Shown: positions 28,972 through 61,283 of the stretch, in pieces
Numbering within the stretch: position 1 is the first letter of the stretch
Layout of the letters: each line of letters starts with the position of its first letter
Assembly: GCA_963734495.1 (NCBI GenBank)
Contig: CAVTHK010000003.1
Coordinates: 259,660 to 323,659 of the forward strand
DNA length: 64,000 nucleotides
DNA from: an uncultured Spirochaetota bacterium
GTDB taxonomy: Bacteria; Spirochaetota; Spirochaetia; SZUA-6; CAVTHK01
Direction of reading: 5' to 3'
The notes under the pieces: generated by a model
Databases searched by the model: none
The model's input: only the letters and a program-made list of their open reading frames with translations
Told to the model about the DNA's origin: nothing
Translations under genes and position numbers: made by a program

Positions 28972-31365
28972 ATGGAATCCTGCTGCGGGACGCGCTGTCC
29001 GGCGGCTCGCCGCTGCGCGCCGGCCCCGGCCGCACGGGCGGTTGCCGCGCTGGCGGGCAATCCGAACTCGGGCAAGACGACGCTGTTCAACGCCCTCACC
29101 GGGAGCCATCAGCGGGTCGGGAACTGGCCGGGAGTGACGGTCGAACGGAGGGAAGGCGCGCTTGCCGACGGCGGGCGCGAAGCCGTCCGCGTCGTCGATC
29201 TTCCCGGCATCTACTCGCTTGCTGCCGGGTCGGAAGACGAGGTTGCCGCCCGGGACTTCCTCCTGAGCGGCGAGCCCGGCCTCGTGGTGAGCGTCGTCGA
29301 TGCGACCAGCCTCTCTCGCGGCCTGTTCCTCACCATTGGTCTCCTCGAGATGAAGGTGCCCGTCCTCGTCGTGCTCACGATGATGGACCTGGCAAGGCGG
29401 CGAGGGATCGCGATCGACGCGGAGCATCTCGCGGGTCTCCTCGACTGCCCTGTCGTGGCCGTCGACGCCACCAGCGCGAAGGACGCCGGGCGGGTCGGGG
29501 GCGCCATCCGCGCGGCGCTGGATCTCCGGCGGATCTCATCGTTCCGCGTGAGCTACGCGCCCGCGATCGAGTCGTGCCTCGCGGAGCTCGGTCCGCTGCT
29601 CGCCGGTCTCGCCGCCGGGATCGGCGCGGACGAACGGTGGGTCGCGCTCGAGCTGATCGGGGGCGACGCGTGGATCGCGCGGCGCGCGGCCGAGGCTTCA
29701 GCCGTGACTGAAGAGCATGCGGGCGGCGTCCGCCGCGGCCTGCGCGCCTCGATCGGCGAGGAGCCGGACGTCGCGGTCGCGGACGCGCGGTTCGCCCTGG
29801 CGCGCTCGCTGTCGGGCCCGGCGTCGCGGGAGCCCGCCGCGCGGGGGACGGTGACCGAGAGGGTGGACCGCGTGCTGCTCAACCGCTTCCTCGCCCTCCC
29901 GATCTTTCTCGCGGCGATGTACCTGACGTTCTGGTTCACGATGAGCGTCGGGGGCGCTTTCGTCGGTTTCTTCGACCGGATCGCGGGCACGCTCTTTGTC
30001 GACGGTCCCGCCGCGCTGCTCGCCGGCGCCGGGGCCCCCGGCTGGCTCATCGCCCTGGCCGCAGGAGGGCTCGGCGCAGGCCTGCGCGCCGTGGCGGCGT
30101 TCGTGCCGGTCCTCTTCGCCATGTTTCTTGCGCTCGCCGCGCTCGAGGAGTCCGGCTACATGGCGCGGGCCGCCTTCGTCATGGACCGCATCATGCGATG
30201 CGTCGGCCTTCCCGGGAGGGCGTTCGTGCCGATGATGGTGGGGTTCGGGTGCACGGTCCCTGCGATCATGAGCACCCGCACCCTCGAGACCCGGCGCGAC
30301 CGGTTCATGACGATCTTCATGGCGCCGAGCATGTCCTGCGGCGCGAGGCTGCCGGTCTACGCGTTCTTCGCGGCTGCATTCTTTCCGGACGCTTCCGGAG
30401 CGGTGGTCTTCTCGCTCTACGCCGCCGGTGTCCTCGTGGCGCTGCTGACCGGTCTTCTGCTCAAATCGACGCTGTTCCGCGGCGCGGAGTCCTGCTTCGT
30501 CATGGAGCTGCCGCCGTATCACGTGCCGCGGGTGCGCGCTGCGGTCGCTCAGGCGTCGTTCAGGCTCAAGGGGTTCGTGATGAGGGCGGGCGCCGCAATC
30601 GCCCTGATCGCGACCGTTCTCGGGCTGGCGAACACCATCTCCGCGGGCGGACTCCCGGCGCGCGGCGGCCGCGGCGAGACGGTCCTGTCCGCGGCGGGCA
30701 AGGTCGTCGCCCCCGTCTTCGAGCCGATGGGCGTCCGCGGCGACAACTGGCCGGCCGCGGTGGCGCTGCTCACCGGCCTGTTTGCTAAGGAAGCGGTGGT
30801 GGGGACGCTGAGCTCCCTCTACGGCCAGGGCGGGGCGGTGGAGCGGGCGGCCTCCTTTGATCCGATCGCCCGTATCCGCGAGGCCCTGGCTTCGGTCCCT
30901 GTCGGGCTGGCGCAGGCCGCGGCGCGCCTGGTCGACCCGCTGGGGCTTCGGGCGGGCGGCGCTGCGCCCCGGGACGCCGGAACGTTCGCTCGCCTGCGCG
31001 AGCGCTTCAGCCCCGCGGCTGCATACGCGTACCTGCTGTTCGTGCTGCTGTATTTCCCCTGCGTGGCGTCCATGGGTGCGGCGCTGCGGGAGATGGGAGC
31101 GGGCCTGGCCCTGGCCCTTGCCGGCTACCTCACGGCAGTCGCGTGGTCAGTGGCGACGCTGTTCTATCAGCTTGCGGCGGGGCCGAGGCCGCTGCCCGTC
31201 GCGCTCGCGCTCGCGGTGGCAGCCGCCGTGGTGGGTGTCTTTGCTCTGGCGGGAAGGAGCGGCCGCGACGCCGCGGCCGCTCCGATGGATCTGCCTACAG
31301 CCGCGACCGGGCCGCGTAGTGCGTGTGCAGCAGGTGATGCGAGCGCTCCCCGAGCGGCTCTTTGA
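28972..31365 (+). CDS. feoB: ferrous iron transport protein B
   Basis: G-domain GNPNSGKTTLFNALTG and DLPGIYSL, followed by a polytopic membrane domain. The last ~70 nt overlap the convergent hydA-like gene, so the 3-prime end is somewhat uncertain. Confidence 0.9.
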   Translation: MESCCGTRCPAARRCAPAPAARAVAALAGNPNSGKTTLFNALTGSHQRVGNWPGVTVERREGALADGGREAVRVVDLPGIYSLAAGSEDEVAARDFLLSGEPGLVVSVVDATSLSRGLFLTIGLLEMKVPVLVVLTMMDLARRRGIAIDAEHLAGLLDCPVVAVDATSAKDAGRVGGAIRAALDLRRISSFRVSYAPAIESCLAELGPLLAGLAAGIGADERWVALELIGGDAWIARRAAEASAVTEEHAGGVRRGLRASIGEEPDVAVADARFALARSLSGPASREPAARGTVTERVDRVLLNRFLALPIFLAAMYLTFWFTMSVGGAFVGFFDRIAGTLFVDGPAALLAGAGAPGWLIALAAGGLGAGLRAVAAFVPVLFAMFLALAALEESGYMARAAFVMDRIMRCVGLPGRAFVPMMVGFGCTVPAIMSTRTLETRRDRFMTIFMAPSMSCGARLPVYAFFAAAFFPDASGAVVFSLYAAGVLVALLTGLLLKSTLFRGAESCFVMELPPYHVPRVRAAVAQASFRLKGFVMRAGAAIALIATVLGLANTISAGGLPARGGRGETVLSAAGKVVAPVFEPMGVRGDNWPAAVALLTGLFAKEAVVGTLSSLYGQGGAVERAASFDPIARIREALASVPVGLAQAAARLVDPLGLRAGGAAPRDAGTFARLRERFSPAAAYAYLLFVLLYFPCVASMGAALREMGAGLALALAGYLTAVAWSVATLFYQLAAGPRPLPVALALAVAAAVVGVFALAGRSGRDAAAAPMDLPTAATGPRSACAAGDASAPRAAL

Positions 31366-33067
31366 GCCACGTCTCGTAGAGCTTCTGGATGTCGGGGTTG
31401 AGGTGGCTCTTGCGCAGCGTCTTGCCCTCGTCCTCGCGGTAGATCGCAGCGATGCGGGCCTTGCGCACCTCATCGGTGGTAAAGCGCGGCTGGCCGCCGC
31501 CGCCGATGCAGCCGCCGGGGCAGGTCATCACTTCGACAAAGTGGTACTGGCCGGCGCCGCTCTTGATCCTCTCCATCAGGATCCGGGCGTTTCCCAGGCC
31601 GTGGGCGACCGCGGTCCGCAGCTCGACCCCTTCGAGGAAGCGCCAGTCGGGAAGCGTCCCTTCGAGCCTGATCGCCGCCTCCTTGACCCCCTGCAGCCCC
31701 TCGAGCGGCGTGACGTGGAGGCCGCCGACCGGGATCTCGCGGCCGGTCACCAGCTCGTACGCGGTGCGCAGCGCCGCCTCCATGACTCCGCCGGTATTGG
31801 CAAAGATGTCGGCCGCGCCGGTGGAGAGGCCGAGCGGGGCGTCCATCTGGTCGTCGGGGAGCGAGACGAAATCGATGCCGGCCCCGTCGATCATCTGGGC
31901 GAGCTCGCGCGTCGTGAGCACGTAGTCGACGTCCTGCTGGCCGCTTGCGTTCATCTCGGGCCGCTGCGCCTCGAACTTCTTGGCCGTGCACGGCATGACC
32001 GAGACCACGACGATGTCCTCGGCCCGCCTGCCGATCTGCTCGGCGTAGAAGGTCTTGGCCAGGGCGCCGAACATCTGCTGCGGGCTCTTGCAGGTCGAGA
32101 GGTTCGGCAGGTACTCCGGGTAGAAGTGCTCGGTGTACTTGATCCAGCCCGGCGAGCAGCTCGTGAACTGGGGGAGAGCCACCGGGCGCTTCTCGACGAG
32201 GGCTTTCTTGAGCCTCATCAGGAGCTCGGTGCCCTCCTCGACGATCGTGAGGTCGGCCGTGAAGTTGGTGTCGAAGACCTTGGCGAAGCCGAGCCGCCGC
32301 AGGGCGGAGACCATCTTGCCGGTGACCAGCGTGCCGGGCGGGAGCCCGAAGCACTCCCCGAGGGCGGCGCGGATGGCGGGCGCGGTCTGCACGATGACCA
32401 CCTTCTTCGGGTCCTCCAGGGCGCGGAAGACGCCGTCGGCGTGGCTGGACTCCACGATCGCGCCGACGGGGCAGACCGCCGCGCACTGCCCGCACTGCAC
32501 GCAGGCGACGTCGGCGAGGTTCGCCGCAAAGGCGGGCGCCACCTGGGTGCGGTAGCCGCGGTACTGCGGGAAGAGGGCGCCCACGCCCTGCACGTCGTTG
32601 CACGCGGTCACGCACCGGCGGCACTTGATGCACTTGCCGGAGTCGCGGGAAAGAGCCGGCGTGCTGCGGTCGAGCCGCACCGCGGCCTTCTCGCCCGTGT
32701 AGCGGATGTCGCGAATCCCGAGCTGGTGGGCGAGCGCCTTGAGCTCGCAGTCCTCGCTCCGGTCGCAGGTCTGGCAGTCGCCTTCGTGCTCCGACAGCAG
32801 CAGCTCGACCACCGTGCGGCGCGCGTTGCGGACGCGGCCCGTGTTGGTGCGCACCTTCATGCCGTCGGAGGCGGGGGTGGCGCAGGCGGCCGAGAGGGTC
32901 TTGGCCCCCTCGACCTCCACGACGCACACGCGGCAGGCTCCGAGGGGCGCGCGCCCCTCGAGGTGGCAGAGGGTGGGGATGTGGACCCCGGCATCCGTGG
33001 CAGCCTGGAGGATGGTCGCGCCGGGGGCGACTTTCGTTTCTCTGTCGTTGATCGTGACGCTAATCAT
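31295..33067 (-). CDS. hydA: [FeFe]-hydrogenase-like large subunit, M3 architecture (HydA/HndD type) with variant L1 motif
   Basis: Intact 590 aa. It has a 2Fe-2S ferredoxin N-terminus, HEGDCQTCDRSEDC and two ferredoxin CxxCxxCxxxCP motifs. L1 is FTSCSPGW (canonical TSCCPxW), L2 is VMPCTAKKFE, and L3 is EVMTCPGGCIGGGGQP. Confidence 0.85.
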   Translation of the reverse strand: MISVTINDRETKVAPGATILQAATDAGVHIPTLCHLEGRAPLGACRVCVVEVEGAKTLSAACATPASDGMKVRTNTGRVRNARRTVVELLLSEHEGDCQTCDRSEDCELKALAHQLGIRDIRYTGEKAAVRLDRSTPALSRDSGKCIKCRRCVTACNDVQGVGALFPQYRGYRTQVAPAFAANLADVACVQCGQCAAVCPVGAIVESSHADGVFRALEDPKKVVIVQTAPAIRAALGECFGLPPGTLVTGKMVSALRRLGFAKVFDTNFTADLTIVEEGTELLMRLKKALVEKRPVALPQFTSCSPGWIKYTEHFYPEYLPNLSTCKSPQQMFGALAKTFYAEQIGRRAEDIVVVSVMPCTAKKFEAQRPEMNASGQQDVDYVLTTRELAQMIDGAGIDFVSLPDDQMDAPLGLSTGAADIFANTGGVMEAALRTAYELVTGREIPVGGLHVTPLEGLQGVKEAAIRLEGTLPDWRFLEGVELRTAVAHGLGNARILMERIKSGAGQYHFVEVMTCPGGCIGGGGQPRFTTDEVRKARIAAIYREDEGKTLRKSHLNPDIQKLYETWLKEPLGERSHHLLHTHYAARSRL

Positions 33068-36000
33068 CGGCTGGCTCCTTGGGGTACTGCGGGGGCTGCG
33101 TGCGCCGAGGCGGCCGAGCGGCGCGGCCGCGGCGCACCTGCTCGAGGGTGAGCTCGGGCGGCGTGATCACCGTCTTCCCGAAGTCGCAGCGCAGGCACCG
33201 GCACGCCTGCTTGAGCGCCACGGCCTCGTTCCACGGGAGCTCGACCTCGTCGAAGTTGTGCCTTCGGCGCTCGACGGCGATCGAGGGCATCTTCTCCCTC
33301 GGCGTGGCCACCGGGTCGGCCTCGGGGTCGAAGAACGTGTCCTCCGTCCTCTCCGTGCGCCAGAAGGCGTTGTAGCCTCCGCTCAGGTACAGGTCCATGG
33401 CGACCGCGGCGCGTTCGCCCCCGGCGATCGCTTCGACGACCGACGACGGGCCGCTGGCCGCGTCGCCGCCGGCGAAGACCCAGTCCAGGGACGTCTGGCC
33501 GGTGACCGGATCGGCGGAGATGAAGCCGTCGTCGGTGAGCGCCACCGCCGCCCCGCCGAGGATCTGCCGCGCGTCCAGCCTCTGGCCGATCGCCGCGATC
33601 ACCTGGTCGGCCTCGACCTCGAGCTCGGCCGCGCTCGCCTTGGCGCGCCTGCGGCCGCTCCTGTCGAATTCGCCGAGCGACATGGTGACGCAGCGCAGGC
33701 CCGTGATCTTCCTGCCGCGGTCGCGCAGGACCGCGACCGGCTGCGTGAGCGTCATCAGCTCCACGCCTTCCTGCAGCGCCTCGTCGATCTCTTCGGCATA
33801 CGCCGGCATCTGCTCGCGGGTGCGGCGGTAGAGGACGGTGACCTTTTCCGCCCCGAGGCGCAGCGCCGTGCGCGCAGCGTCGATGGCGGCGTTTCCGCCG
33901 CCGATGATCGCGACCTTGCGCCCGACTTCGCACGGAGCCGCGGATGTTGTACTGCTTGAGGAACGGGACGGCCTGGACGACGCCCGGGCCCTCGGCGCCT
34001 TCGATGTCGAGCTCGATGCCTTCGGGCGCACCCACCCCGAGGAAGACGCTCTCGTAGCCCCAGTTCTTGAGGTCGGCGAGGGTAAAGTCGGCGCCGAGCC
34101 TTCGGCCGGTCTCGATGTCGACGCCCATGCGCTCGATCATGCGGATCTCGCGGGCCATGGTCTCGCGGGGCAGGCGGTAGGCGGGGATCGTCTGGGTGAG
34201 CATCCCGCCGGGCGCGGATCTCCGCCTCGAAGACCTTGGGCTTGTAGCCCAGACGGGCGAGGAAGTAGGCGCATGCGAGGCCGCCGCGGCCCCGCGCCCA
34301 CGATGGCGATCTTGCGCGCGGCGTTCGCCGCGTTCTCCCGCACCTCGGGGAGCTGAATGGTCACCTCCTGGTCGACCATGAAGCGCTTGATCGCCGCGGA
34401 CGGAGACCGGCGCGTCCAGCGACGTGCGGCGGCACTTGTCCTCGCAGGTGTGGAAACAGACGCGGCCGCAGACGGCGGCGAACGGGTTGCGCTCGCGGTG
34501 CAGCTTGAGCGCCTCGGCGTAGCGCTTCTCGGCAACCAGCGAGACGAAGCCCGGCACGTTGACCCCCGCGGGGCAGGCGCTCTGGCAGGGCGCGCGCACG
34601 AGCGAGGGGCAGACGCCCGCTTCGCAGTGGCGGTCCCGGATGTGCTGCTCGTACTCGTGGCGGAAGTGCCGTATGGTGGAGAGCACCGGGTTGGGCGCGG
34701 TCTGGCCGAGGCCGCAGAGCGCCGTCTCCTTGATCTGCTGGCCGAGCTCGACCAGCCGGTCGATGTCCTCCATGTGCCCCTTGCCCGCGCAGATCCGCTC
34801 GAGGATCTCGAGCATCCGCTTGGTGCCCACGCGGCAGGGGACGCACTTGCCGCACGACTCGTCCTGGACGAACTCCAGGAAGAAGCGCGCGACGTCGACC
34901 ATGCACGTGTCGTCGTCCATGACGATGAGCCCGCCCGAGCCCATGATCGCACCGAGCTCGGTGAGGGTCTTGTAGTCGAGCGGGACGTTGAGGTGCTCCT
35001 TGGAGATGCAGCCGCCCGACGGACCCCCGACCTGGGCGGCTTTGAAGGTCTTGCTCCCCTTGATGCCGCCGCCCACGTCGTAGATGAGCTCGCCGAGAGG
35101 CGTGCCGATCGGGACCTCGACCAGCCCGGTGTTGTTGACCGCGCCGGCGAGGGCGAAGACCTTGGTGCCCTTGCTGTCCGCGCTGCCCATGGAAGCGTAC
35201 CAGGCGGCGCCGTTGAGGATGATGGCGGGGACGTTGTTGTAGGTCTCTACGTTGTTCAGGACGGTCGGCCTGCCGCGCAGGCCCTTCTGCGCCGGGAACG
35301 GCGGGCGCGGCCGAGGCTCGCCGCGCTTGCCCTCGATCGAGGCCATGAGCGCGGTCTCCTCGCCGCAGACAAAGGCGCCGGAGCCCATGCGGATCGCGAG
35401 GTCGAAGGAGAAGCCGGTCCCGAGGATGTCCTCGCCGAGGAGCCCCCGCTCGCGCGCCTGCTTGAGCGCCGCGTCGAGCCGCTCGACCGCGAGCGGGTAC
35501 TCGGCCCGCACGTAGATGTACCCGCGGCTCGCCCCGATCGCGAAGGCGCCGATGACCATGCCTTCGATGACGCTGTGGGGGTCGCCCTCGAGGACGCTGC
35601 GGTTCATGAACGCGCCAGGGTCGCCTTCGTCGGCGTTGCAGAGGATGTACTTCTGTCCGTCCTCGGAGGCCGCCTTGCGCGTGAAGTCCCACTTCATCCA
35701 GGTGGGGAAACCGGCGCCGCCCCGGCCGCGAAGGCCCGACCGCTTGATCTCGTCGATGACCGTTTCGGGGGTCATCTGGGAGAGCACCTTGGCGAGGGCC
35801 TGGTAGCCGTCGTTGCCGATGTAGTCCTCGATGTCGAGCGGGTCGATGCGGCCGCAGTTGCGCAGCACCACCTTGGTCTGCCTGCGGAAATACTCCAGGT
35901 CCCGCTCGGTGCGCAGCTGGGCGTCGCCGTCGATCATCGTTTCCAGGACCTCGGGCACCCTGTCCTCGGTGACCCCTTCGAACCAGGCGCCGCTGGGCTG

Positions 36001-36315
36001 GAAGACCATGACCGGTCCCTTGGCGCACGGCCCGAGGCAGCCGGTCTGCACGATGCGGGCCTTGGCGCCGCGCGCCTCGAGCTCCTTTTCGAGCGCGGCC
36101 TTGACCTTGAGCGCGCCCGAAGCGAGGCAGCCGCCGCCGGTGCAGAGCCGGATCTCCATCTCGGCGGCCCGCGCGTCGCGCGCCTCCTGGACTCTCTTGC
36201 GGACGGTGTCGAGCTCCTCGATCGAGCCGATCCTGGCGGGCCCGGCCGTCCGGCTGGTCGCCTGGCCGACCTTGACCTTCACCTTGGTTTCCTTTCCGCC
36301 TTCGCCGAACTTCAT
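33060..36315 (-). pseudogene. hydB: NuoF-like flavoprotein (HydB) fused to a GltD/NfnB-like NAD(P)H:FAD oxidoreductase module; four +1 breaks between 33930 and 34400
   Basis: The ATG at 36315 overlaps the hydC stop (ATGA). The NuoF part has [23 protein letters not shown] and ESCGKCVPCRVG. The GltD part has APCQSACPAGVNVPGF, NPFAAVCGRVC, KIAIVGAGP, then AGLACAYFLARLGY, PGGMLTQTIPAYRLP, VAIIGGGNAAIDAA and FAGGDAASGPSSVVEAIAGG. The stop at 33060 overlaps the hydA start. Confidence 0.8.
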
Positions 36316-36848
36316 GCCTTCTCCTCCCCCTGCTCGGCCTGGGTGAGCAGCTCGCGCACGCGCGCAGGCTTGACCCGCTGGTGGACCTCGTCGTTGACCA
36401 TGACGGCGGGGGCGAGGCCGCACGCTCCGAAGCAGCGGCCGATCTCGAGCGAGAACTGGCGGTCGGGCGTCGTCTGCCCGACCTCGATGTGCAGCGTGTC
36501 CTGAAGGGACTTCAGCACGTCCTTGCCGCCGCGCACGTAGCAGGCCGTGCCGAGGCAGACCCGCACGAGGTTCTTGCCGCGCGGAACGGTGGAGAAGTAG
36601 GAGTAGAAGGTCACCACCCCGGTGACTTCGCTGTAGGGCTTCTCGAGCCTGAGCGCGATGTGCTTGAGCACGCACGCGGGCAGGTACCCGAGCAGGTCCT
36701 GGGCCTTCTGGAGCACGGGGATCAGGGCGCTGTCCGGATCGGGGAACTCGTCGATGACGCGATCCAGGATCGCCAGCTGTTCGTCGGCGATCCGTTCCGC
36801 TTCCTGCGGCGAGGGATTCGCGACTCCGGGATGCACGGCCTGGCTCAT
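36312..36848 (-). CDS. hydC: NuoE-like 2Fe-2S thioredoxin-fold subunit (HydC)
   Basis: VCLGTACYVRGG and CFGACGLAPAVMVND. The ATG at 36848 has AGGAGG 5 nt upstream. Confidence 0.85.
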   Translation of the reverse strand: MSQAVHPGVANPSPQEAERIADEQLAILDRVIDEFPDPDSALIPVLQKAQDLLGYLPACVLKHIALRLEKPYSEVTGVVTFYSYFSTVPRGKNLVRVCLGTACYVRGGKDVLKSLQDTLHIEVGQTTPDRQFSLEIGRCFGACGLAPAVMVNDEVHQRVKPARVRELLTQAEQGEEKA

Positions 36849-36924
36849 GAACACCTCCTAAGGCTTCGCGGGGGGCCCCCAGATCGCCTGCCTCACGGCT
36901 ACCGGGGCCCTTTTCCCCCGACGC

Positions 36925-37400: not shown

Positions 37401-39168
37401 ATGAGCCAGGTCTGGAGCATCGCCGAAGTGACGGCCCGCTACGGGCGGGAGCGCGACAGGCTTCTGGACATCCTCCGTGAGGTTCAGGCCGAGCACGGGT
37501 TCGTCTCCGACGAGGCCGTGCGTGAGATCGCGCACGCCCTCGGCATCCACAAAGTCGAGGTGCACGACGCGGCGACGTTCTACAATTTCCTCTCGCGCAA
37601 GCCCAAAGGCCGCACGGTCATCCGCCTCGCCAAGGGCGTGGTGGAGCGGCAGCATGGCCTGGCCGAGGTGGCCGCCGCCTTCGAGCAGGCGGTGGGCGTG
37701 CGCTTCGGGGAGACCACCGCGGACGGCGCCATCAGCCTCGAGTACACGTCCTGCATCGGGATGAGCGACCAGCCGCCCTCGGCGCTCGTGGACGGCCAGG
37801 TCGTGGGAAGCATCCGGCCCGAAGAGGTCCCGGGCATGGTGGCGGAGCTCCGCGAGCACGGGCACCTCGCCCGCTCGCGCGTCGAAACCAACCTGGTGGT
37901 CGCAGGGGCGTGCATCTTCGCCCCCATGGAGCGGGGCCGCGCCATCCGCTCCGCGGTCAACATAACGCCCGACCAGGTGATCGCCGAGCTCAACCGCGCG
38001 AGACTGCGCGGGCGCGGCGGGGCCGGGTTCCCGACCGCGATGAAGTGGGACTTCTGCCGCAAGGCGCACGGCCGCGCCCACTACATCGTCTGCAACGCCG
38101 ACGAAGGCGAGCCGGGGACCTTCAAGGACCGCGTGATCTTCAGCCTGTCGCGCGACCTCGTGATCGAAGGGCATGACGGTCGCCGCCTACGCAATCGGCG
38201 CGAGCTTCGGCCTCCTGTACCTGCGCGGCGAGTACGCCTTTCTCCAGGAGCGCATCGAGGAGGTCCTCGCGCGGCGCAGGCACCAGGGTCTGCTGGGCAA
38301 TCACATCTGCGGCAAGGAAGGCTTCGACTTCGACATCCGCGTCCAGATGGGCGCGGGCGCGTACGTCTGCGGCGAGGAGTCGTCGCTGCTGGAGTCCGCG
38401 GAGGGCAAGCGCGGCGCCCCGCGCGACCGCCCGCCGTTCCCCGTGACCAAGGGCTACCTGGGCCAGCCCACGGCCGTCAACAACGCCGAGACGCTCTGCT
38501 GCGCGGCGCGGGTGCTGGAAAAGGGGGCCGGCTGGTTCTCCGGGATCGGCACCAGGGACTCGACGGGCACCAAGCTCTTCAGCGTCTCCGGCGACTGCAC
38601 GGCGCCCGGCGTCTACGAGCTGCAGTTCGGGCACGAGCGTCAACAAGCTGCTCGAGATGGTCGGCGCCGAGGACGTGCAGGCCGTGCAGGTCGGCGGGCC
38701 GTCGGGCGCCTGCGTCGCGCCCAAGGACTTCGGCCGCAGGCTCTGCTTCGAGGACCTGGCGACCGGCGGCTCCGTCATGGTGTTCGGCAAGGACCGGGAC
38801 CTGCTGCAGGCCGTGCGCGACTTCACCGAGTTCTTCGTCGAGGAGTCGTGCGGCTGGTGCGCCCCCTGCCGCGCCGGCACGACGCTGCTGCTGCGCATGC
38901 TCGAGCGGATCCAGGAGGGGCGGGCCACCCGCGCGGACCTGCACCAGATGGAAGACCTCGCCGCCACGGTGCAGGCACTGCAGCCGCTGCGGCCTGGGGC
39001 AGACCGCGCCCAACCCGTTCGTGACGACGCTGCGCAACTTCCCGGAGCTGTACCAGGCGCGCCTCGCGCCCCGAGGAGTACGTGCCCGCGCTCCGCCTGG
39101 AGGAGGCGCTCGCGGCGGGCGAGCGCGCCGCGGGCCGGCGCGCCGCGACCAGGGAGGCCGGCGAATGA
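37401..39168 (+). pseudogene. hoxF: NAD-reducing [NiFe]-hydrogenase diaphorase subunit HoxF (NuoE-like plus NuoF-like); four +1 breaks
   Basis: AGGAGG upstream of the [52 protein letters not shown]. Breaks near 38170, 38640, 38980 and 39075. The TGA overlaps the hoxU ATG (ATGA at 39165-39168). Confidence 0.8.
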
Positions 39169-39880
39169 ACACCAAGGTCACCTTCGTGCTGGACGGCCGC
39201 GACGTCGAGGCCAAGCCGGGCCAGACGATCCTGGAGGCGGCGGACGCCGCGGGCATCTACATCCCGCGGCTGTGCTACCACGAGGACCTGCGTGCCCGGC
39301 GGCCACTGCCGGATCTGCTCGGTCAAGGTCAACGGGAAGGTCACCAACGCGTGCACCATGCCCGTCATGGACGGGATGGTGGTCGAGAAGCGACACGCCG
39401 GAGCTGACCGCTCACCGCAAGCGGATCGTCGAGATGCTCTTCGTGGAGGGCAATCACTTCTGCCCCATCTGCGAGAAGAGCGGCAGCTGCGAGCTGCAGG
39501 CGCTGGCGTACCGGTTCGGGATGACGGCGCCGACCTACCCGTACCTGCCGCGGCTCCGCGGCGGTGGACGCGAGCGCACCCCGACGTGTTCATCGACCGC
39601 AACCGCTGCGTGCTGTGCGGCCGGTGCGTGCGCGCCTCGCGCGACCGCGACCACAAGGGCGCTGTTCGGCTTCGAGGGCCGGGGCGTCTGCGCATGCGGG
39701 TCGTCGTGGATTCGCTCGACGGCCTCGGCGGCACGGCCCTGGTGCGCGAGGACGCGGCCGCCGCCATCTGCCCGACGGGCAGCATCGTCGTGAAGCGCGT
39801 CGGCTACGCGACGCCGTACGGCAGGCGGCACGTACGACAAGGCGCCGATCGGCTCGGAGATCGAGAAGAAGGGGTCCTGA
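39165..39880 (+). pseudogene. hoxU: HoxU diaphorase iron-sulfur subunit (NuoG N-terminal-like); about 8 frame breaks
   Basis: [99 protein letters not shown]. Stop at 39878-39880. Confidence 0.7.
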
Positions 39881-39932
39881 GGCCGGCCGACGGCGCGACC
39901 GGCCCTGAGGCCGCACGAAAAGGGGGAACAGC

Positions 39933-40477
39933 ATGGCGGGCAAGCCCAAAGTCGCGACGTGTGCTCTGACGGGCTGCTTCGGGTGCCACATGTCGCTGCT
40001 GGACATCGACGAGCGCATCCTCGATCTGATCGAGCTCGTCGATTTCGACAAGTCGCCGATCGACGACATCAAGGAGCTCACGGGTCCCGTCGACATCGGG
40101 ATCATCGAGGGAGGCGTGTCCACCGAGGAGAACGTCGAGGTGCTGCGCTCGTTCCGCGAGCACTGCAAGGTGCTCGTGGCCATCGGCGAGTGCGCGCTCA
40201 CGGGCGGCGTCCCGTCGATGCGCAACCTCGTGCCGCCTGCAGGAGTGCCTCGAGGAGGCGTACCTGAAGGGGCCGACGGTCGTCGACGGCCGGATCCCCG
40301 ACGACCCGTCGCTTCCGCGTGATCCTCGACAGGGTCTATCCCTGCCACGAGGTGGTCAAGATCGACTACCTCCTTCCGGGCTGTCCTCCGTCGGCCGACG
40401 TGCTCTGGACGGCGCTCTCGGCCCTGCTCAAGGGCGAGGAGCCGAAGCTGAGCTACGAGCTGATCAAGTACGACTGA
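39933..40477 (+). pseudogene. hoxY: [NiFe]-hydrogenase small subunit HoxY; two +1 breaks (about 40235 and 40320)
   Basis: KVATCALTGCFGCHMSLLD, IGECALTGGVPSMRN, YLLPGCPPSADVLW. Ends ELIKYD with its stop at 40475-40477. Confidence 0.8.
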
Positions 40478-40491
40478 AGGGAGGCGCGCTC

Positions 40492-41974
40492 ATGAAGACC
40501 AACGGCAACGGCAAGCACAAGGGCACGGCGGGCGCGCAGGCCACCCGGAAGATCGTCATCAACCCCGTCACGCGCGTCGAGGGGCACGGCAAGGTCACCA
40601 TCCATCTCGACGCGAAGGGCGGCATCGACCAGGCCCGGTTCCACGTCGTCGAGTTCCGCGGGTTCGAGCGCTTCGTGCGCGGCCGGCTGTACTGGGAGGT
40701 GCCGGTCATCGTCCAGCGGCTCTGCGGCATCTGCCCGGTGAGCCACCTCCTGGCCGCGGCCAAGGCGATGGACGTCATCGTCGGCGCCGACCGGCTCACG
40801 CCGACCGCGGAAAAGATGCGGCGGCTGATGCACTACGGCCAGATCTACCAGTCGCACGCCCTGCACTTCTTCCACCTCGCGTCGCCCGACCTCCTGTTCG
40901 GCTTCGACGCGCCGCCGGCGACGCGCAACGTGATCGGCGTCGCGCGCGAGCACCCCGAGATCGCGACGAAGGCCGTGCTGATGCGCAAGTTCGGCCAGGA
41001 GATCATCAAGGCCACCGCGGGAAAGAAGATCCACGGCAACGGCGCGATCCCCGGCGGGATCAACAAGAACCTCTCGATCGAGGAGCGGGACATGCTCGCC
41101 GGCGGCATCGACGACGATGCTCGCCTGGGCGGTCGAGGGGCTCGAGCTCTACAAGGGGCTGTACACGCAAGGACATCGACGCGGCTCGCCTCGTTCGGGA
41201 GCTTCGAGAGCAATTTCGTGAGCATCGTGCGCGACGACGGGGCCTCGACCTCTACGACGGTCTGCTGCGGGCCAAGGATCCCGACGGCAAGATCATCTTC
41301 GACAAGGTGCAAGGCCGCCGACTACCTGGACGTGATCGCCGAGGAGGTGCGCGGCTGGAGCTACATGAAGTTCCCGTTCATCCGGCCCCTCGGCAAGGAG
41401 AAGGGGTGGTACCGCGTCGGACCGCTGGCGCGCATGAACAACTGCGACCGCATCGACACGCCGATCGCGGAGGCGGAGCGCAAGGAGTTCCTCGCGCTCG
41501 GAGGGAGGCCGCCCGGTCCACTCGACGATGGCCTACCACTGGGCGCGCCTGATCGAGCTGGTTCACTGCGCGGAGAAGATGAAGGAGCTGCTCGCGGACC
41601 CCGACCTCCAGGGGACGGACCTGGTGACGAGCGGCGAGCGGCGCGGCCGCGGGGTCGGCTGGATCGAGGCGCCGCGCGGCACGCTGTTCCATCACTACGA
41701 GGTCGACGATCACGACCAGGTGACGATGGCGAACCTGATCGTGTCGACGACCAACAACAACGAGCCCATGAACCAGGCGGTGCGCGCGGTCGCGCGAGAC
41801 CACCTCGCCGGGAAGGCCGAGATCACCGAGGGCCTGCTGAACGCGATCGAGGTCGCCATCCGGGCCTACGATCCGTGCCTGAGCTGCGCGACGCACGCGG
41901 TCGGCCGCATGCCGCTCGAGGTCGTGCTGCTCGGCTGCGACGGGCGGGAGATCTCGCGCGGGAGCAAGGGGTGA
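40492..41974 (+). pseudogene. hoxH: [NiFe]-hydrogenase large subunit HoxH; about 7 +1 breaks between 41115 and 41520
   Basis: The N-terminal Ni-ligand motif RLCGICPVSH and the C-terminal DPCLSCATH, followed by a 24-aa extension. Three successive +1 shifts within 41115-41180 were verified by hand translation. Confidence 0.85.
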
Positions 41975-42533
41975 GCGGGAGGGCCGGCCGCTCGGTCCTG
42001 GTCGTCGGCGTCGGCAACCCCGGCCGGGGCGACGACGGGATCGGGCCCGCCCTGGTCGAGCGCCTGGAGGCGCGACGCCGTGCCCGGGCTCGCGCTGGAG
42101 TCGGCCTTTCAGCTCTCGCTCGAGCACGCGGCCGCGGTCGGCGGAGCATCCGACGGTGCTGTTCGTCGACGCGGCCGTCGGCACCGCTGTCGGCCGCGCG
42201 GCCGTTCGCGCTGCTGCCGATCGCCCCGGGCGACGGCGCCGTCACCGGCATCAGCACGCACGCGATGGCGCCCGCGGACGTGCTGGCGGTCTCGCGGCTC
42301 GCGTTCGGCGCCGGCGCCGGACGCGTGGCTGCTCGCGGTGCGGGGCCGCGACTTTCGCGAACGCGAGGGGCTGAGCGCGCGCGGCCCGCCGCAACCTGGC
42401 GCGGGCCCTCGAGGCCGCCCGGGCGTTCATCGCCTCGGCGCTGGATCGCGGCGCGGACCTCCGGTGCCGGACGAAGCGACGAGACGACGGCCGGCGCAAG
42501 TCCGACAGGGTGCTGGGGAGGAGTGAAAGATGA
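41971..42533 (+). pseudogene. hoxW: hydrogenase maturation endopeptidase HoxW-like; about 5 frame breaks
   Basis: The GTG overlaps the hoxH stop (GTGA). VLVVGVGNPGRGDDGIGPALVERL, TVLFVDAAV, ISTHAMAPADVL, AWLLAVRG. The inferred stop overlaps the next ATG (ATGA at 42530-42533). Confidence 0.6.
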
Positions 42534-42908
42534 CCGATCGGAAGACCATCCTGATCATCGACGATGACGCGGACATCCGGGCCTCCATCCGGATGGTGCT
42601 CGAGGCCGCGGGGTTCTCCGTAGGCGAGGCGGGAAGCGCCGACGAAGGGCGCCAAGATCGCCCCGAGGATCTCGCCCGACGCCATCATCGTCGACCTGAT
42701 GATGGAGAGCGTCGACTCGGGGGTGCAGCTCTCGCAGTCCCTCAAGGAAAGCGGCTACGCCGGCCCCATGTACCTGCTGAGCTCGGCGGGCGACTCCGTG
42801 CGCTTCAACCTGGACCCGCGCGAGCTCGGCCTGGCCGGCATCTTCCAGAAGCCGATCCAGCACGACCTGCTCGTGCGCACCCTCAAGTCGAAGCTGCACG
42901 TCCCGTAG
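42530..42908 (+). pseudogene. stand-alone response-regulator receiver domain (no output domain); one +1 break near 42645
   Basis: GGAGGAG upstream. TILIIDDDADIR, PDAIIVDLMM, FQKP. About 125 aa in total. Confidence 0.7.
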
Positions 42909-42942
42909 GCCGGGCCCGCCGGGTCATCGCGCCCCGCTCGGC

Positions 42943-44448
42943 TCAGGCCTCGGCGCAGGGCAGCGTGACGACGAACGTGCTCCCGCGGTCCGGCGCCGAG
43001 TCCACCGAGATCGTGCCGTTGTACTCGTCGAGCACCCTCCGCACGGTGGCGAGGCCGAGGCCCGTCCCGGGGATGCCCTGCGTCTTCGGGCCGCGAGCCC
43101 TGTAGAAGTCCTGGAAGAGGTTGGACACCTCCTCCTGCGTCATGCCGATGCCCGTGTCCTGCGAAGCGCGATCTCCCAGCCGCCGCCGAGCCGCTCCTGC
43201 CGCTGCGGACCGAGACCGTGAGGCTGCCGCCTTCGCGGTTGTACTTGATGCCGTTGGAGATCAGGTTCATGAAGATGCGGTCGAGGTCGCCGCGGTCGGC
43301 GACGCACGCGCGCCTCGTCGGGCGCCTCGAGGCTCAGGCGCGATCCCGCGCTTTTCCGCCTGCACGCGGAAGAACTCCAGCTGCTCGTCGAGGACCTGCC
43401 GCAGGTCGAGCCCCTGCGCCGACCGCTCGACCTTGCGCGCCTCGCGACTGCGCAGGAACTGCAGGTCCTTCACGAGGTCCAGCAGCGCTTCGGCGCGCGC
43501 CTTGCTCCGCGCCATGATCTCCTTGATCCGCTCGGGCTCCCGTCGAGCGTGCCCGCGAGCACGACGTCGATGTAGCTGACGATCGCGGCCAGCGGGCTGG
43601 TGAGCTCGTGCGCGACCATGGAGACGAAGCGGTTGCGGTCCTGCTCGGCTTCCCACTCGTCGGTGACGTCGCTGCAGCAGCAGGATCAGCCCCGCGGTCT
43701 CCCTCGCCGCGGATGTACGGCGCCGCGTTCAGCTCGAGCCTGCGGCCCCGGAGCTCGAGCCGCAGCCGCCGGAAGCGGCCGGCCGCCGGCCCGCGCGGCG
43801 AGCAGCGTCCTCGACGACGGCCGGTGACCGCGGCGTCGAGGCCGAGCTCCTCGAGGGCCAGGTCCTCGCGGTAGCGGACGCCGAGCAGCGAACTCGGCCC
43901 GCGGGTTCATCAGCACCGGCTTGCGGTTGATGTTGAGCACGATCACCCCTTCGCGCATCGAGTTGATGAGCTGGCGCGAGAGGTTGCGCTCGCTGTTGAG
44001 CGCGGACAGGTAGGTCTCCCGCTCGCCGGATGAGCCGGCACTGCCGCGCCCGCCCGCTCGACGACCTGCAGCAGCTCGTCGGGCGCCGAACGGCTTGACC
44101 AGGAAGTCGAAGGCGCCGTGGCGGGTGACCTCGACCGCGGCCTCGACGGTGGCCAGCGCCGAGACGATGACGACGACCGTCGCGGCCGCTCTCGTTGATG
44201 CGCCTCGGTCACCTCGAAGCCGTCGATCCCGGGCATCTTGAGGTCGACGAGGGCGACGTCGAAGGTCCCGCCCGGCGAGCCGCACCAGCGCCTCGCCGCC
44301 GTCCGCGGCCGCGACGACGGAGTGACCCTGGCGCTCGAGGATGCGGCGCATGCCCTCGCGCATGCCCTCCTCGTCGTCGACGACCAGGATGCTGAGGGCG
44401 CCGCCTCGGAGGACGCTGTCGCGGGGTCGGTCCGACGACCGCGCTCAC
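42943..44448 (-). pseudogene. hybrid sensor protein: receiver domain, PAS-like region, HisKA and HATPase; many frame breaks
   Basis: The GTG at 44448 overlaps the upstream stop (GTGA). LSILVVDDEEGMREGMRRILERQGH, FDVALVDLKMPGIDGFEV, HGAFDFLVKPF, INSMREGVIVLNINRKPVLMNPRA, LVAHELTSPLAAI, NLISNGIKYNREGG, GTGLGLATVRRVLDEYNGTISVDSAP. Confidence 0.65.
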
Positions 44449-46607
44449 GGCGCGGACCTCTCCGCGCCGACGGCCGCGCCGGCGCCGGCGCCGGGTCCCG
44501 CAGCCCGATCTCGAAGCAGGCGCCGCCCTCGGGGCGATTGCCGCCGCGGATCCAGCCGCCGTGCATCTTGACGATCCCGTAGCAGACCGAGAGGCCCAGT
44601 CCCGTGCCCTTGCCGACCGGCTTGGTCGTGTAGAAAGGCGTGAACAGGTGCTCGAGGACGCCTCTCGGGGATGCCCGGCCCCGTGTCGGACACCGAGACG
44701 GTGAACTCCCCGTCGCCCTCCTGCGGTCTCGATCCGGATGCGTCCCGCCCCCGGGCATCGCCTCGATCGCGTTCTTGATGATGTTGTCGAAGACCTGCCG
44801 CAGCTGCGACGAGTCGACGCTGTGAGCCTTCATGCCGTCGTCGAGGTCGAGCTCGACGCGCACCCGTCCCGCGGGGTCGAGGGCGCGGGCACGGCCCGGG
44901 CCGCTTCGCGGACCAGCGCGTTGATGTCGGTCTGCTGACGGTCGATCTTCTTCTCGCGCGCGAAGTTCAGGATGCCCTGCACGATCGAGCGGGCGCGCTC
45001 GGACTCGCGGATGATGCGGTCCGCGTCCGCCGAGCCCCTGCCCGCTCGCCGCCTTCGGCGAGCTCCTCCCGCAGGAGGTGCGCGTACATGAGCACGACGC
45101 CGAGCGGGTTGTTGATCTCGTGGGCGATGCCCGCGGCCATCTGGCCCATGGAGGCGAGCTTCTCGGCCTGGATCAGGCGGCTCTGGTTCTCCTTGAGGTC
45201 CGTGATCGTCGTCCTCGAGCCGCGAGATGAGGTAGGGCAGGCACATCTCGACCTCGGCGATGCCGCGGTAGACGGCCACCGCCTTCTCCCGGCAGGAGTC
45301 GTAGCCGCAGGCGCGGCAGTTCAGCTCGTCCTCGGGGACGCACCTTGCCGGTGCTGGCGAGGATCTTGCGGATGTCCTCCTCGGGCACCGGCGCCTCGCG
45401 GGTCTTGGATCTGCGCGAACGTCTTGGGGAGGTCGAGCGTCGAGGTAGCGGGTGTTGGCGGCCGCCCACTCCTCGATGTCGCTGATCAGCGGGACTGCGC
45501 TTCATGTAGTCGACGATGTACTTCTTGCGCTCGTAGAAGGTGAGGTCGTTGGGCATCGCGGGCCCGCCGATGCACCCTTCGCAGAACAGCAGGTCGAAGA
45601 GCCTGGTCACCACGGGCCGGCGCTTGCGCACGATCCGGCCGAGGACTGGAGCAGCTCCGTGACCCGGGCGCTTCCCTCGACGATCATCACCGGGCTCTCC
45701 AGCAGGTCGTCGTCGATGGCGGCCGCCTTGAGCAGCCCGCCGGTGACCGGGTAGATCTGGCCGAGGTTGGCGTGCGGCGGATCGAAATCGCGCGGCGCCG
45801 CGGCCTGCGGATCGACGCCGAGGTCCGCGAACAGCTCGATCAGCTCCTCGAAGGTGAGCACCTCGTCCACGAGGCCGAGTCCGCCGCGCCTCGTCCTTCT
45901 TCGCGACGCACGGCCCGATGAAGACGATCGGCGGGAGGCTCCGCGCCGGTCGGGCGTGAGGCGCTCGCGGATCACGCGCGGCCATCGCCTCCATCGGCGA
46001 AACGACGTCGCGCGAGGTGCGGCACGAGCTCGGGGCAGATCTTCTCCACGTACGAGACGACCGCGGGGCAGGGCGAGCTGATGACGAAGGCCGGCCGACC
46101 GGCGGCCGGTCTCATCGCGCACGAGCTGCCCGAATCGCCGGCGATACTCGTAGGAGACCAGGTCCGCGCCGAAAGCCACCTCGTAGCACGCGGCTGAACC
46201 CGCAGGCGGCGACCGCGCCGACGAGGCGCTCGGGCTTGACGTCGAGGAAGGCGGCGGGAAAGGAGGGCGCGATCATGGCGCAGCACGGCCTGCCCGGAGC
46301 GCAGGAGGCGCTCGACCTCGGCGACCGACGAGCGGATCTGCTTGGCGCCCTGGGAGCACATCGGGACGCAGTAGCCGCAGGAGATGCACTTGGAGGCGAT
46401 GATCTCGGCCTGGCCGCCGTGCACCTCGATCGCCTTGGTCGGGCAGGTCCGCACGCAGGAGTAGCACTTCCTGCACTTTTCGGCAGCCGTCAGGACCGCG
46501 AGAGAATCACCGGCTGCCTGGCCGTAGCGAGCCCTGCCCGCGGGCCGCTGCGGTCCCGGAAGTGCCTCCATCAGGCCCATGATAGCATGCCCGGCTCCCT
46601 TGTCCAC
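44445..46607 (-). pseudogene. sensory [FeFe]-hydrogenase-like domain fused to a histidine kinase (HydS-type, kinase-linked); many frame breaks
   Basis: - Ferredoxin motifs: CRKCYSCVRTCP and CISCGYCVPMC.
- H-cluster-type motifs: ISSPCPAVV, FIGPCVAKKDEA, LLFCEGCIGGP.
- Extra cluster motif Cx2Cx4Cx16C ([29 protein letters not shown]) at about 45241-45315.
- Kinase part: His[18 protein letters not shown] and HATPase DNIIKNAIEAMPGGG ... GKGTGLGLSVCYGIVKMHGG.
- The start is uncertain (GTG at 46607 or an ATG about 27 nt downstream). Confidence 0.65.
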
Positions 46608-47362
46608 CGCACTGTCCGCCCTGCCCGTCGAACGGATGACCGGTCACCAGCGCCGCCGCCGTGCCGCCGGAGACGAAGACGTCGGCCCGCAGCGGAAGGC
46701 CGCGGTGGAACAGCCTGTGGAAGCCGTCCGGGATCCGCGCGAGCGCGCGGCCATTCGACGCGAGCGCCGCTGCCGCGGCCGAGGCGGGGATCCACTCGCC
46801 CGCGGGAAGCTCGAGCGCCACCTCCCGGCGCTCCGCCTCCGCTCAGGTCGGTGACGCGCAGGCCGCCCGAGAGGATGCTCTCCGCGAGTCGCGCCGTGTC
46901 CAGGTGCCACGGGTCTTCGAGGCGGAGGGCGTCGACGGCCTCCAGGAGGCGGCTCGTGTTCAGCTCCTCGAGGCGGTACCCGGCTGCGGAGAGGCTGAGG
47001 AGGCAGGCTGCCAGGGGCCCCCTCCGCCACGACAGCGCGAGCGGCGAGCTCTCGCCCTCGCAGATGCCCGCCCGCCGGCAGCAGCTCGACGCCCGCGTGC
47101 ACCGGGAACGCGAGCACGGGCGTCGGCGCCGCCGCGGGAGCTCGACGGAGGCGTCCGCGGGCCACGACGGCAGGCGTTCGGCGCGCACGGGACCTCCCGG
47201 CTCGCTCCAGACGATCCGGCAGGCGAGGCCGGGGAACCGCGCCCGCCACGAGTCGGGAGGCTCGGGCAGCAGCAGCCGCTGGGGCCGCGGCGGCAGGTCG
47301 CATGCCAGGCATCCCGCGGCCAGCAGCGCGGCGCAGCCGGCCGCCCGCAGTCGTCGCCTCAT
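46571..47362 (-). pseudogene. hypothetical lipoprotein; about 4 frame breaks, 3-prime end uncertain
   Basis: MRRRLRAAGCAALLAAGCLAC lipobox. The remaining fragments (AAGYRLEELNTSRLLEAVDALRLEDPWHLDTARLAESIL, ELPAGEWIPASAAAAALASNGRALARIPDGFHRLF) match no family I recognise. Confidence 0.35.
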
Positions 47363-47409
47363 GCACGAGACAATGGGGCCGGCGCCCGCGGCGCGTGGCG
47401 TCCCCGGCC

Positions 47410-59700: not shown

Positions 59701-59749
59701 GGGCCGACGACGCGGCCGCCGGCCCTCGGACCGCCCCGGGGACGTAGCG

Positions 59750-60960: not shown

Positions 60961-60964
60961 GGCG

Positions 60965-61273: not shown

Positions 61274-61283
61274 AGGCCCGGGA

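Follow-up and report, generated by a model that had tools for sequence, protein, structure and literature searches.

A putative sensory [FeFe]-hydrogenase fused to a histidine kinase, encoded beside a [NiFe] Hox operon in an uncultured Spirochaetota bacterium

Can a hydrogenase-like domain pass a hydrogen signal directly to a histidine kinase with which it shares a single polypeptide chain? This question is posed by a locus in a 64,000-nucleotide stretch of DNA from an uncultured Spirochaetota bacterium (GenBank assembly GCA_963734495.1, contig CAVTHK010000003.1, positions 259,660 to 323,659), the whole of which is referred to here as the window. An initial reading of its letters (the original prediction) had recognized a sensory [FeFe]-hydrogenase-like domain joined to a histidine kinase in a gene that is broken into several reading frames. 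Our follow-up analysis leads us to consider it rather probable that this gene, hereafter the sensor gene, encodes a group C-type putative sensory [FeFe]-hydrogenase that is fused to a class I histidine kinase and responds to H2. The sensing of H2 by such a kinase is plausible in light of its sequence, and this reading is based on the architecture of the protein, the conservation of its residues, its gene neighbourhood, and the purifying selection acting on the gene.

The sensor gene and its frame breaks

Since the window has a guanine plus cytosine content of about 70%, long spurious open reading frames (ORFs) are present in every frame, and a three-frame translation of the minus strand from position 46750 to 44300 revealed the sensor motifs to be spread over all three of them. 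Plain tblastn merged these frames into poor gapped alignments and was set aside; it was replaced by a purpose-written, frameshift-aware protein-to-DNA alignment by dynamic programming. Against intact relatives, this alignment spans positions 46565 to 44448 with 19-22 single-base frame corrections, nearly all of which are extra bases in the window, and it encounters zero in-frame stops. After frame correction, 596 of 665 residues (about 90%) are identical to those of the orthologue P0001, and removal of about 21 single-base frame breaks yields a protein of about 702 amino acids (aa). The stop codon is located at positions 44445-44447 on the minus strand. The gene had been thought to extend to position 46607, but the GTG codon found there is only the limit of the maximal ORF; judged by the orthologues P0002 and P0003, the start is likely the ATG at position 46571. 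All motifs that the original prediction had quoted for a single polypeptide were located on the minus strand in the claimed order (Table 1), with the correction that the second ferredoxin motif ends in CS instead of the CP ascribed to it.

The profile searches that had been proposed as a check were carried out, and Fe_hyd_lg_C, Fer4, HisKA, and HATPase_c were all matched in the stitched protein. In a hand-stitched version of 670 aa, the Pfam domains follow each other in the order Fer4 families, Fe_hyd_lg_C (5e-42), FeS PF04060 (2e-9), HisKA (1e-13), and HATPase_c (3e-26); in the corrected protein of 702 aa, they occupy residues 29-76 (Fer4), 96-335 (Fe_hyd_lg_C), 413-442 (FeS), 471-534 (HisKA), and 581-685 (HATPase_c). 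The match of the corrected protein to Fe_hyd_lg_C (PF02906) covers profile positions 3-245 of 245 and reaches 141.7 bits (cutoff 22.1; E 4e-41), and its FeS (PF04060), HisKA, and HATPase_c domains score 37, 49, and 96 bits, respectively. These values lie well over the Pfam thresholds, and the domain pattern of the sensor is therefore not due to chance. The kinase part possesses the H-box histidine along with the N, G1, F, and G2 boxes, as class I (HisKA) kinases do, and it matches the sequences of CckA (PDB 5idj; 6e-32) and ZraS (PDB 9jfj; 6e-31).

Just 38 residues lie between the last cysteine of the C-terminal Cx2Cx4Cx16C motif and the phospho-accepting H-box histidine, and Pfam detected no PAS domain between the C-terminal cluster and the H-box in either the stitched or the corrected protein. 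The AlphaFold2 model of P0002 (mean predicted local distance difference test score of 78, and >90 across much of the H-domain) likewise has no PAS fold between the C-terminal cluster and the dimerization and histidine phosphotransfer (DHp) helix: a helix starts straight after the last cluster cysteine, a short break of low confidence follows (residues 461-475), and the DHp helix with the histidine comes next. When this model was searched with Foldseek, its N-terminal two-thirds matched HydA structures, with a probability of 1.00 for TmHydA and the D. desulfuricans enzyme, and its C-terminal third matched ZraS, CckA, and HK853. No NCBIfam model covers the whole fusion; the best matches, an AtoS-like kinase and TIGR04105, fall far under the cutoff. 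Database names for relatives of the sensor are generic, e.g., 'histidine kinase' or '[Fe-Fe] hydrogenase large subunit C-terminal domain-containing protein'.

As the protein was assembled by hand stitching and by alignment over many frame changes, it is legitimate to ask whether the hydrogenase-like part belongs to one gene and the kinase to another, the two having been fused only by this procedure. We regard this as extremely improbable. Many clean assemblies contain uninterrupted ORFs of 650-720 aa that comprise both parts, and intact single-ORF orthologues of the same architecture include P0001, P0002, and P0003. All of the best 120 database protein matches (120/120), mostly from metagenome-assembled genomes of Spirochaetia and with 60-86% identity to the rough query, are intact proteins of 650-770 aa that carry PF02906, PF04060, PF00512, and PF02518. 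Moreover, the linker from the last cluster cysteine to the H-box (...EKLASMGQ) is almost invariant; two peptides derived from it served as the search pattern in a scan of species-representative genomes, and at least 583 candidate loci encoding a sensor relative were recovered in this manner. The best 80 of these cover the query to at least 93% and stem from Spirochaetota, Planctomycetota, Bacteroidota, Acidobacteriota, Armatimonadota, Myxococcota, Chloroflexota, Hydrogenedentota, Calditrichota, Fibrobacterota, and other phyla. The abundance of intact orthologues thus bears out the proposal that both parts belong to one gene, and on these sequence grounds the hydrogenase-kinase fusion in the window is real.

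The frame breaks themselves are unevenly distributed. When codon usage was followed through the entire window by a Viterbi pass, dense frame switches were found at 38166-47858, 645-1765, and 3194-3276, and most other genes were read in a single frame. About 70 breaks are present in ten genes between 38.1 and 47.9 kb, and the genes from position 47995 on are clean. An unrelated phosphoglycerate-mutase-family gene (0.6-1.8 kb) gives a full-length Pfam match only once about eight frame segments are stitched together. The frame switches at 3194-3276 sit in a FecR-domain gene, and a further possible patch (59385-62228) is suggested by the codon-usage pass. Relative to the related locus L002, to which it is 91.7% identical over 4.3 kb of nucleotide sequence, the window has 42 one-base insertions and 12 one-base deletions, mostly outside homopolymers, so that 54 indels stand against 355 substitutions in total. 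In the same comparison, the ratio of nonsynonymous to synonymous substitutions (dN/dS) is 0.20 for the sensor gene and 0.20 for the downstream gene of a receiver (REC)-histidine kinase (HK) hybrid, and neither the 657 aligned codons of the sensor nor the 491 of REC-HK include a stop. Given the indel/substitution ratio, the excess of insertions, the purifying selection, and the confinement of the breaks to patches of about 10 kb, they are most likely technical and reflect an unpolished long-read stretch in an otherwise clean assembly.

If the sequence is taken as given, some 21 breaks in the sensor gene and some 70 over 38.1-47.9 kb could also be read as real, in which case the sensor would be a pseudogene decaying together with the Hox genes. 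This we judge to be very improbable. For bacterial pseudogenes, a deletion bias is generally reported; here, insertions of random single bases outnumber deletions by 42 to 12, and 54 indels beside just 355 substitutions are implausible for natural decay. The lack of in-frame stops in both kinase genes and their dN/dS of 0.20 argue against decay as well, as do the same noise in the unrelated phosphoglycerate-mutase-family gene and the clean state of the genes from 47995 on. Programmed frameshifting was rejected, as the approximately 21 sites have no common context.

The presumed H-cluster site and the proposed sensing of H2

The H-domain was aligned with HMMER to HydA from Thermotoga maritima (PDB 7p5h_A) and to the D. 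desulfuricans enzyme (8bj7_A, 8rxj_A, 9r9v_A), and a residue census of the sensor family was taken over 82 relatives; residues are given in CpI numbering. The four cysteine ligands of the [4Fe-4S]H cluster (C300, C355, C499, C503), all of which had been predicted to be present, align with 7p5h_A in all three motifs, those of L1 and L2 align with the D. desulfuricans enzyme as well, and each is found in 79 of the 82 relatives. Replacement of the proton-relay cysteine (C299) by proline, also foreseen, is evident from the alignment; across the relatives, this position is occupied by P, S, T, A, or D, in no case by cysteine. The window sensor carries three further substitutions, M353 to Gly, F417 to Tyr, and M497 to Leu, and the family shares the Gly (82/82) and the Leu (79/82). 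Two residues lie between the last two ligand cysteines in L3 (CxxC) versus three in group A enzymes, a spacing common to 78 of the 82 relatives. Retained are K358 (77/82), E361 (78/82), and the A-P-S motif (A230 and S232, 79/82 each; P231, 80/82). In group A enzymes, the residues at K358 and P231/S232 form hydrogen bonds to the CN ligands.

Each of the 16 cluster cysteines (8 ferredoxin, 4 H-cluster, 4 C-terminal) is present in at least 79 relatives and the complete Cx2Cx4Cx16C motif in 78; in the kinase part, the H-box His and the G1 Asp occur in all 82 and the N-box Asn in 79. The suggestion that Cx2Cx4Cx16C is the extra-cluster motif of the putative sensory hydrogenase TmHydS proved correct, since it has been reported for both TmHydS and TamHydS (PMC8163306). 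As in putative sensory hydrogenases, the window protein possesses neither the proton-relay cysteine nor the M353/M497 pair. Judged by their residues, the noncanonical L1 to L3 motifs rule out a prototypical group A catalytic enzyme and are compatible with a sensory type.

Bacteroidales harbor, upstream of hydC, a second sensor paralogue of about 617 aa that is devoid of the kinase, plus a SpoIIE-like phosphatase (paralogue at L038:3385-5238, minus strand; equivalents in L040, L041, L045, L049, L050, L057, L060, L070). Its C499-equivalent is C, H, D, or N, and its K358-equivalent is Ala (Asn in L040 and L050); from these residues, its H-cluster site looks degenerate, unlike that of the kinase-fused copy.

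These data bear on an alternative in which the domain is hydrogenase-like but contains [4Fe-4S] clusters only and no [2Fe] subsite, so that the kinase would be set by redox, ferredoxin/NADH poise, O2, or CO, and not by H2. The CxxC spacing of L3, the reduction of its GGGQP tail to GGP, and the loss of the proton-relay cysteine and of the remaining proton-path residues would fit such a sensor, and in one study, the P1 to P3 motifs could hardly be found in group C1 proteins (PMC11406978). The kinase-less Bacteroidales paralogue, which lacks the C499/K358 equivalents, further indicates that the fold tolerates loss of the site, and some members of the family have no linkage to a hydrogenase. We nevertheless consider this alternative unlikely: the ligand cysteines, K358, E361, and A-P-S are strongly conserved in the kinase-fused family, in half of the loci hydE, hydG, or hydF is found at a distance of up to 10 kb, most sensor genes directly follow hydA, and TmHydS and TamHydS, with similar substitutions, do bind the H-cluster (PMC8163306, PMC10055695).

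In the H2-responsive sensor kinase that we favour, H2 would bind to, and be slowly oxidized at, a sensor-type H-cluster characterized by the missing relay cysteine, Gly at M353, Leu at M497, and a short L3. A redox or conformational change would then travel through the C-terminal [4Fe-4S] domain and the helical linker to the DHp helix and alter autophosphorylation at the H-box histidine. From there, the phosphate would be passed to the single-domain REC and/or to the REC of the neighbouring REC-PAS-kinase, which would relay it on to the control of hydrogen metabolism. The enzyme under control would be the upstream HydABC bifurcating hydrogenase in most lineages and the adjacent [NiFe] Hox enzyme, possibly also HydCBA, in the spirochaete clade. 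We infer the loading of the H-cluster, H2 dependence, direction of regulation, phosphotransfer partners, and output of this system. In HisKA kinases, the HExxN motif is linked with phosphatase activity, and its occurrence after the histidine of the sensor suggests that this protein might act as a phosphatase too. The C-terminal cluster of TamHydS stays oxidized under H2 (PMC13104023), a finding that warns against a simple electron relay in the sensor; a conformational route from the H-cluster to the kinase is equally possible.

A number of observations speak against an H2-responsive kinase. The canonical L1, L2, and L3 signatures of [FeFe]-hydrogenases are not found in the sensor, and H-cluster binding has been doubted for related group C1 proteins (PMC11406978). 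A tblastn search of the 64-kb window detected no hydE, hydG, or hydF; as the window carries a catalytic HydA, the maturases are implied to be elsewhere in the genome. Neither a sigma-54 promoter consensus nor a Rex operator consensus was matched in the whole window, a DNA-binding response regulator is absent from the conserved sensor neighbourhood, and in the close spirochaete relatives P0007 and P0008 no hydrogenase adjoins the sensor. Our literature search found no biochemistry of a kinase-fused member. Finally, we infer, and do not observe, that the sensor gene is intact in the organism, which is most likely the case.

Hydrogenase and receiver genes around the sensor

Table 1. Position, strand, and frame breaks (counted against the L083 orthologue) of features of the sensor locus; positions refer to the window
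Feature	Position	Strand	Frame breaks	Basis and remarks
HydC-HydB-HydA operon, group A [FeFe]-hydrogenase, NADH-linked bifurcating-type	31308..36857	-		stitched translation, tblastn; divergent from Hox
HydA	31308-~33060	-
HydA L1 motif TSCSPGW	32144-32167	-
HydB	~33.1-36.3 kb	-		Pfam
[NiFe] bidirectional Hox-type operon	37401..42479	+	24	alignment to L083 proteins
HoxF (E-F fusion)	37401-39165	+	4
HoxU	39168-39874	+	7
HoxY	39990-40474	+	2
HoxH	40492-41971	+	6
Protease-like gene, 162 aa	41971-42479	+	5
Stand-alone receiver (REC), ~125 aa	42530..42908	+	1	alignment + Pfam; convergent with kinase genes
REC-(PAS-like)-HisKA-HATPase_c hybrid kinase	42943..44450	-	~19	alignment + Pfam
Sensor gene, [FeFe]-hydrogenase-like domain fused to histidine kinase	44445..46571	-	21	frameshift-aware alignment to P0001, P0002, L083 protein + Pfam
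First [4Fe-4S] ferredoxin motif CRKCYSCVRTCP	46440-46475	-		motif search
Second [4Fe-4S] ferredoxin motif CISCGYCVPMCS	46353-46388	-		motif search
APS motif (P231/S232 equivalent) of H-domain	46247-46276	-		alignment to PDB structures
L1 motif ISSPCPAVV	46056-46082	-		motif search + alignment; SSPCP, canonical TSCCP(xW)
L2 motif FIGPCVAKKDEA	45887-45922	-		motif search + alignment; GPCVAKKDE, canonical MPCxxKKxE
F417-equivalent Tyr of H-domain	45730-45756	-		alignment + residue census
L3 motif LLFCEGCIGGP	45560-45592	-		motif search + alignment; canonical ExMACxxGCxxGGGQP
C-terminal Cx2Cx4Cx16C [4Fe-4S] motif (Pfam FeS, PF04060)	45241-45318	-		motif search + Pfam
Kinase core, H-box to G2	44570..45125	-		Pfam + motif search
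H-box AHEINNPL	45102-45125	-		motif search
N box	44756-44797	-
G1 box	44664-44690	-
F box	44621-44644	-
G2 box	44570-44608	-
Hypothetical protein, 245 aa	46630-47353	-	3	no Pfam match; syntenic with L001, L083
DUF4416	47386-47942	-	1	syntenic with L001, L083
TP_0584-like gene			0
DAHP synthase-PDT			0
GGDEF diguanylate cyclase	51443-52636	+	0

The sensor gene had been placed between two hydrogenase operons; in fact, HydCBA and Hox both lie on one side of it, at distances of about 8-13 kb and 2-7 kb, respectively, and linkage to a catalytic hydrogenase operon is thereby given in the window. Its HydA matches PDB 8a6t_A with 3e-135, and the identity of the Hox operon follows from the Pfam labels of the orthologues in L001 and L083 (PF27537 HoxH with a NuoE/F-like HoxF). 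Candidate cognate receivers are at hand in the stand-alone REC and in the REC-PAS-HK, the latter probably in the same operon as the sensor; its PAS domain was detected in the orthologues L001 and L007. On the other side, the sensor is flanked by DUF4416, a TP_0584-like gene, DAHP synthase, GGDEF, and purL. The DUF4416 and 245-aa genes, upstream and on the same strand, abut or overlap the sensor gene in clean relatives and may be co-transcribed with it. The N-terminal half of the GGDEF diguanylate cyclase is unannotated, and its synteny with the sensor locus is seen in the window, L001, and L083.

Within HydCBA, HydB combines, by Pfam, a NuoF-like core with a GltD-like module (Fer4_20 + Pyr_redox_2), which hints that this HydABC-type hydrogenase has an additional NAD(P)H or flavin site. 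The L1 motif of the window HydA has Ser in place of the cluster-ligand cysteine of TSCCP. The same TSCSP is present in the solved HydA1 structure 7q4v_A and in 13 of 31 HydAs encoded beside related sensors, and this recurrence marks it as a natural variant and no error; a literature search on the HydA motif 'TSCSP' found nothing relevant. Rfam and tRNA scans found nothing, and a search of the intergenic regions for inverted repeats returned trivial palindromes only.

The neighbourhoods of the 82 related loci were counted by tblastn with defined queries. Greedy longest-ORF calling was discarded, as it picked antisense ORFs in high-GC related loci (clusters c8, c9, c18). The dominant gene order is (Rex)-HydC-HydB-HydA-sensor-REC-REC/HK-(HydE-HydG-AspA-HydF). 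Group A HydA is encoded directly upstream of the sensor in 49 of 69 loci, REC directly downstream in 50 of 69, and REC-HK no more than 3.1 kb downstream in 63 of 69; over all 82 loci, a single-domain REC is present in 72, and REC and REC-HK each occur in more than 70. At least one maturase (HydE, HydG, or HydF) is encoded no farther than 10 kb away in 40 of the 82 loci, as confirmed by NCBIfam equivalogs. In 16 related loci, hydG and hydF flank an aspartate ammonia-lyase gene (e.g., L065:17481-18896).

Other spirochaete loci deviate from this order. L001 and L083 share the arrangement of the window but are devoid of HydCBA, and L009 and L031 have sensor, REC-HK, HoxF..H, and REC on one strand, of which the window, L001, and L083 show the inverted form. 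In L084 (P0007) and in L085/L086 (P0008), a REC-kinase-methyltransferase fusion and a gene of the URO-D family come after the sensor gene, and the gene before it codes for Rex (L084) or for a REC-PAS protein (L085 and L086); this arrangement hints at a different output.

The close tie to hydA in most lineages raises a further alternative, namely that the protein serves chiefly as a regulatory or accessory subunit ('BfuT') docking on HydABC (Bfu), or as a slow catalytic hydrogenase, with the kinase acting post-translationally and not on transcription. In accordance with this, the gene is usually the fourth of the hydC-B-A cluster, its product has been called the T subunit (PMC11406978), the conserved module includes no transcription factor, and TmHydS and TamHydS keep a low H2 turnover (PMC8163306). 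We hold this to be quite unlikely in view of the complete kinase catalytic core and the two conserved receiver partners, a signature of phosphotransfer signalling, and of the spirochaete clade, in which the module is detached from HydABC and lies beside Hox. The solved HydABC structures known to us contain no such sensor subunit, and the matched T. maritima entry 7p5h was deposited as HydABC only.

For the high-GC spirochaete clade, one may tentatively envisage that an [FeFe] sensor kinase normally tied to HydABC was rewired to [NiFe] Hox, with PAS-less coupling of cluster and kinase and a multi-kinase relay without DNA-binding output. We consider this scenario, taken as a whole, less likely than not; if true, H2 sensing by one hydrogenase class would here, for the first time, serve the regulation of another.

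Comparison with known sensory hydrogenases

The statement that kinase-linked group C enzymes are predicted from genomes, with none characterized biochemically, is upheld by the literature: HydDB listed [FeFe] group C1 as 'histidine kinase-linked (putative)' in 2016 (PMC5037454), we found no characterized kinase-linked member, and as of 2026 only TmHydS and TamHydS have been characterized (PMC13104023). A 2024 study on Hydrogenedentota reported HATPase_c on C1 proteins and described 'BfuT', a group C3 sensor with a histidine-kinase domain that is encoded downstream of bfuA and shared with Caldithrix abyssi; in Bacteroidota, a second bfuT lies upstream of bfuC (PMC11406978). In this study, sensors with a kinase domain were assigned to C3 and those bearing HATPase to C1 (PMC11406978). 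Our sensor family has the order bfuC-B-A-T, the phyla, and the kinase domain on the sensor in common with BfuT, and the second gene upstream of bfuC corresponds to what is seen in loci L042, L065, and L038-L070. Matched by gene order, phyla, and description, the family of the window sensor is thus very likely that of 'BfuT with His_kinase_dom'. The spirochaete clade differs in that the module lies apart from hydA and beside [NiFe] Hox.

With a built-in kinase as output, autophosphorylation can be compared in the presence and absence of H2, a simple readout by which it could be decided whether and how putative sensory [FeFe]-hydrogenases sense H2; our literature search found nothing relevant that ties such an enzyme to autophosphorylation. 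The 2026 study on TamHydS overturned the favoured idea of a redox relay through the C-terminal cluster (PMC13104023). The value for such experiments lies with the family as a whole, whose hundreds of members include some reported in cultured species (PMC11406978), and not with the noisy copy in the window, whose own interest is the link to the [NiFe] Hox operon.

TmHydS (T. maritima, group C, M2f) shares with the window sensor the two N-terminal [4Fe-4S] clusters, the C-terminal Cx2Cx4Cx16C motif, and an H-domain with all ligand cysteines and no proton-relay cysteine, and its gene likewise adjoins a catalytic hydrogenase operon. Its G177 and Y223 correspond to the Gly at M353 and the Tyr at F417; it differs at the C299 equivalent (Ala, A131, versus Pro in the window) and at the M497 equivalent (Ser, S267, versus Leu) (PMC10055695). 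The C-terminal end of TmHydS is a PAS domain, and the proteins to which it signals are separate, whereas in the window sensor the cluster domain leads straight into HisKA/HATPase_c. TamHydS (Thermoanaerobacter mathranii, group D, M2e) possesses the same core of F-clusters, H-domain, and Cx2Cx4Cx16C, also without PAS and with Leu at M497, but has Ser at the M353 equivalent instead of Gly; it stops after the C-terminal cluster, and a histidine-kinase-like ATPase is encoded by a separate, adjoining gene (PMC8163306). By its domain content, the window sensor is accordingly not of the M2f type but has an M2e-like core to which a kinase is appended.

The [NiFe] HoxBC-HoxJ-HoxA system of Ralstonia eutropha and HupUV-HupT-HupR (group 2b) follow the same logic, a hydrogenase of low activity reporting H2 to a histidine kinase, by which hydrogenase genes are controlled. 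In these systems, however, the site is [NiFe], the sensor and the kinase are separate proteins that form a complex, and a DNA-binding NtrC-type regulator is included; in the window, the sensor is [FeFe]-type and fused, and no such regulator is seen at the locus. The window sensor is thus no [NiFe] regulatory hydrogenase, and the [NiFe] genes nearby are of the HoxFUYH bidirectional type; its resemblance to the group 2b systems is one of analogy only. Collectively, the window sensor is a further member of a known, predicted class, and what is novel at this particular locus is solely its association with the [NiFe] Hox operon.

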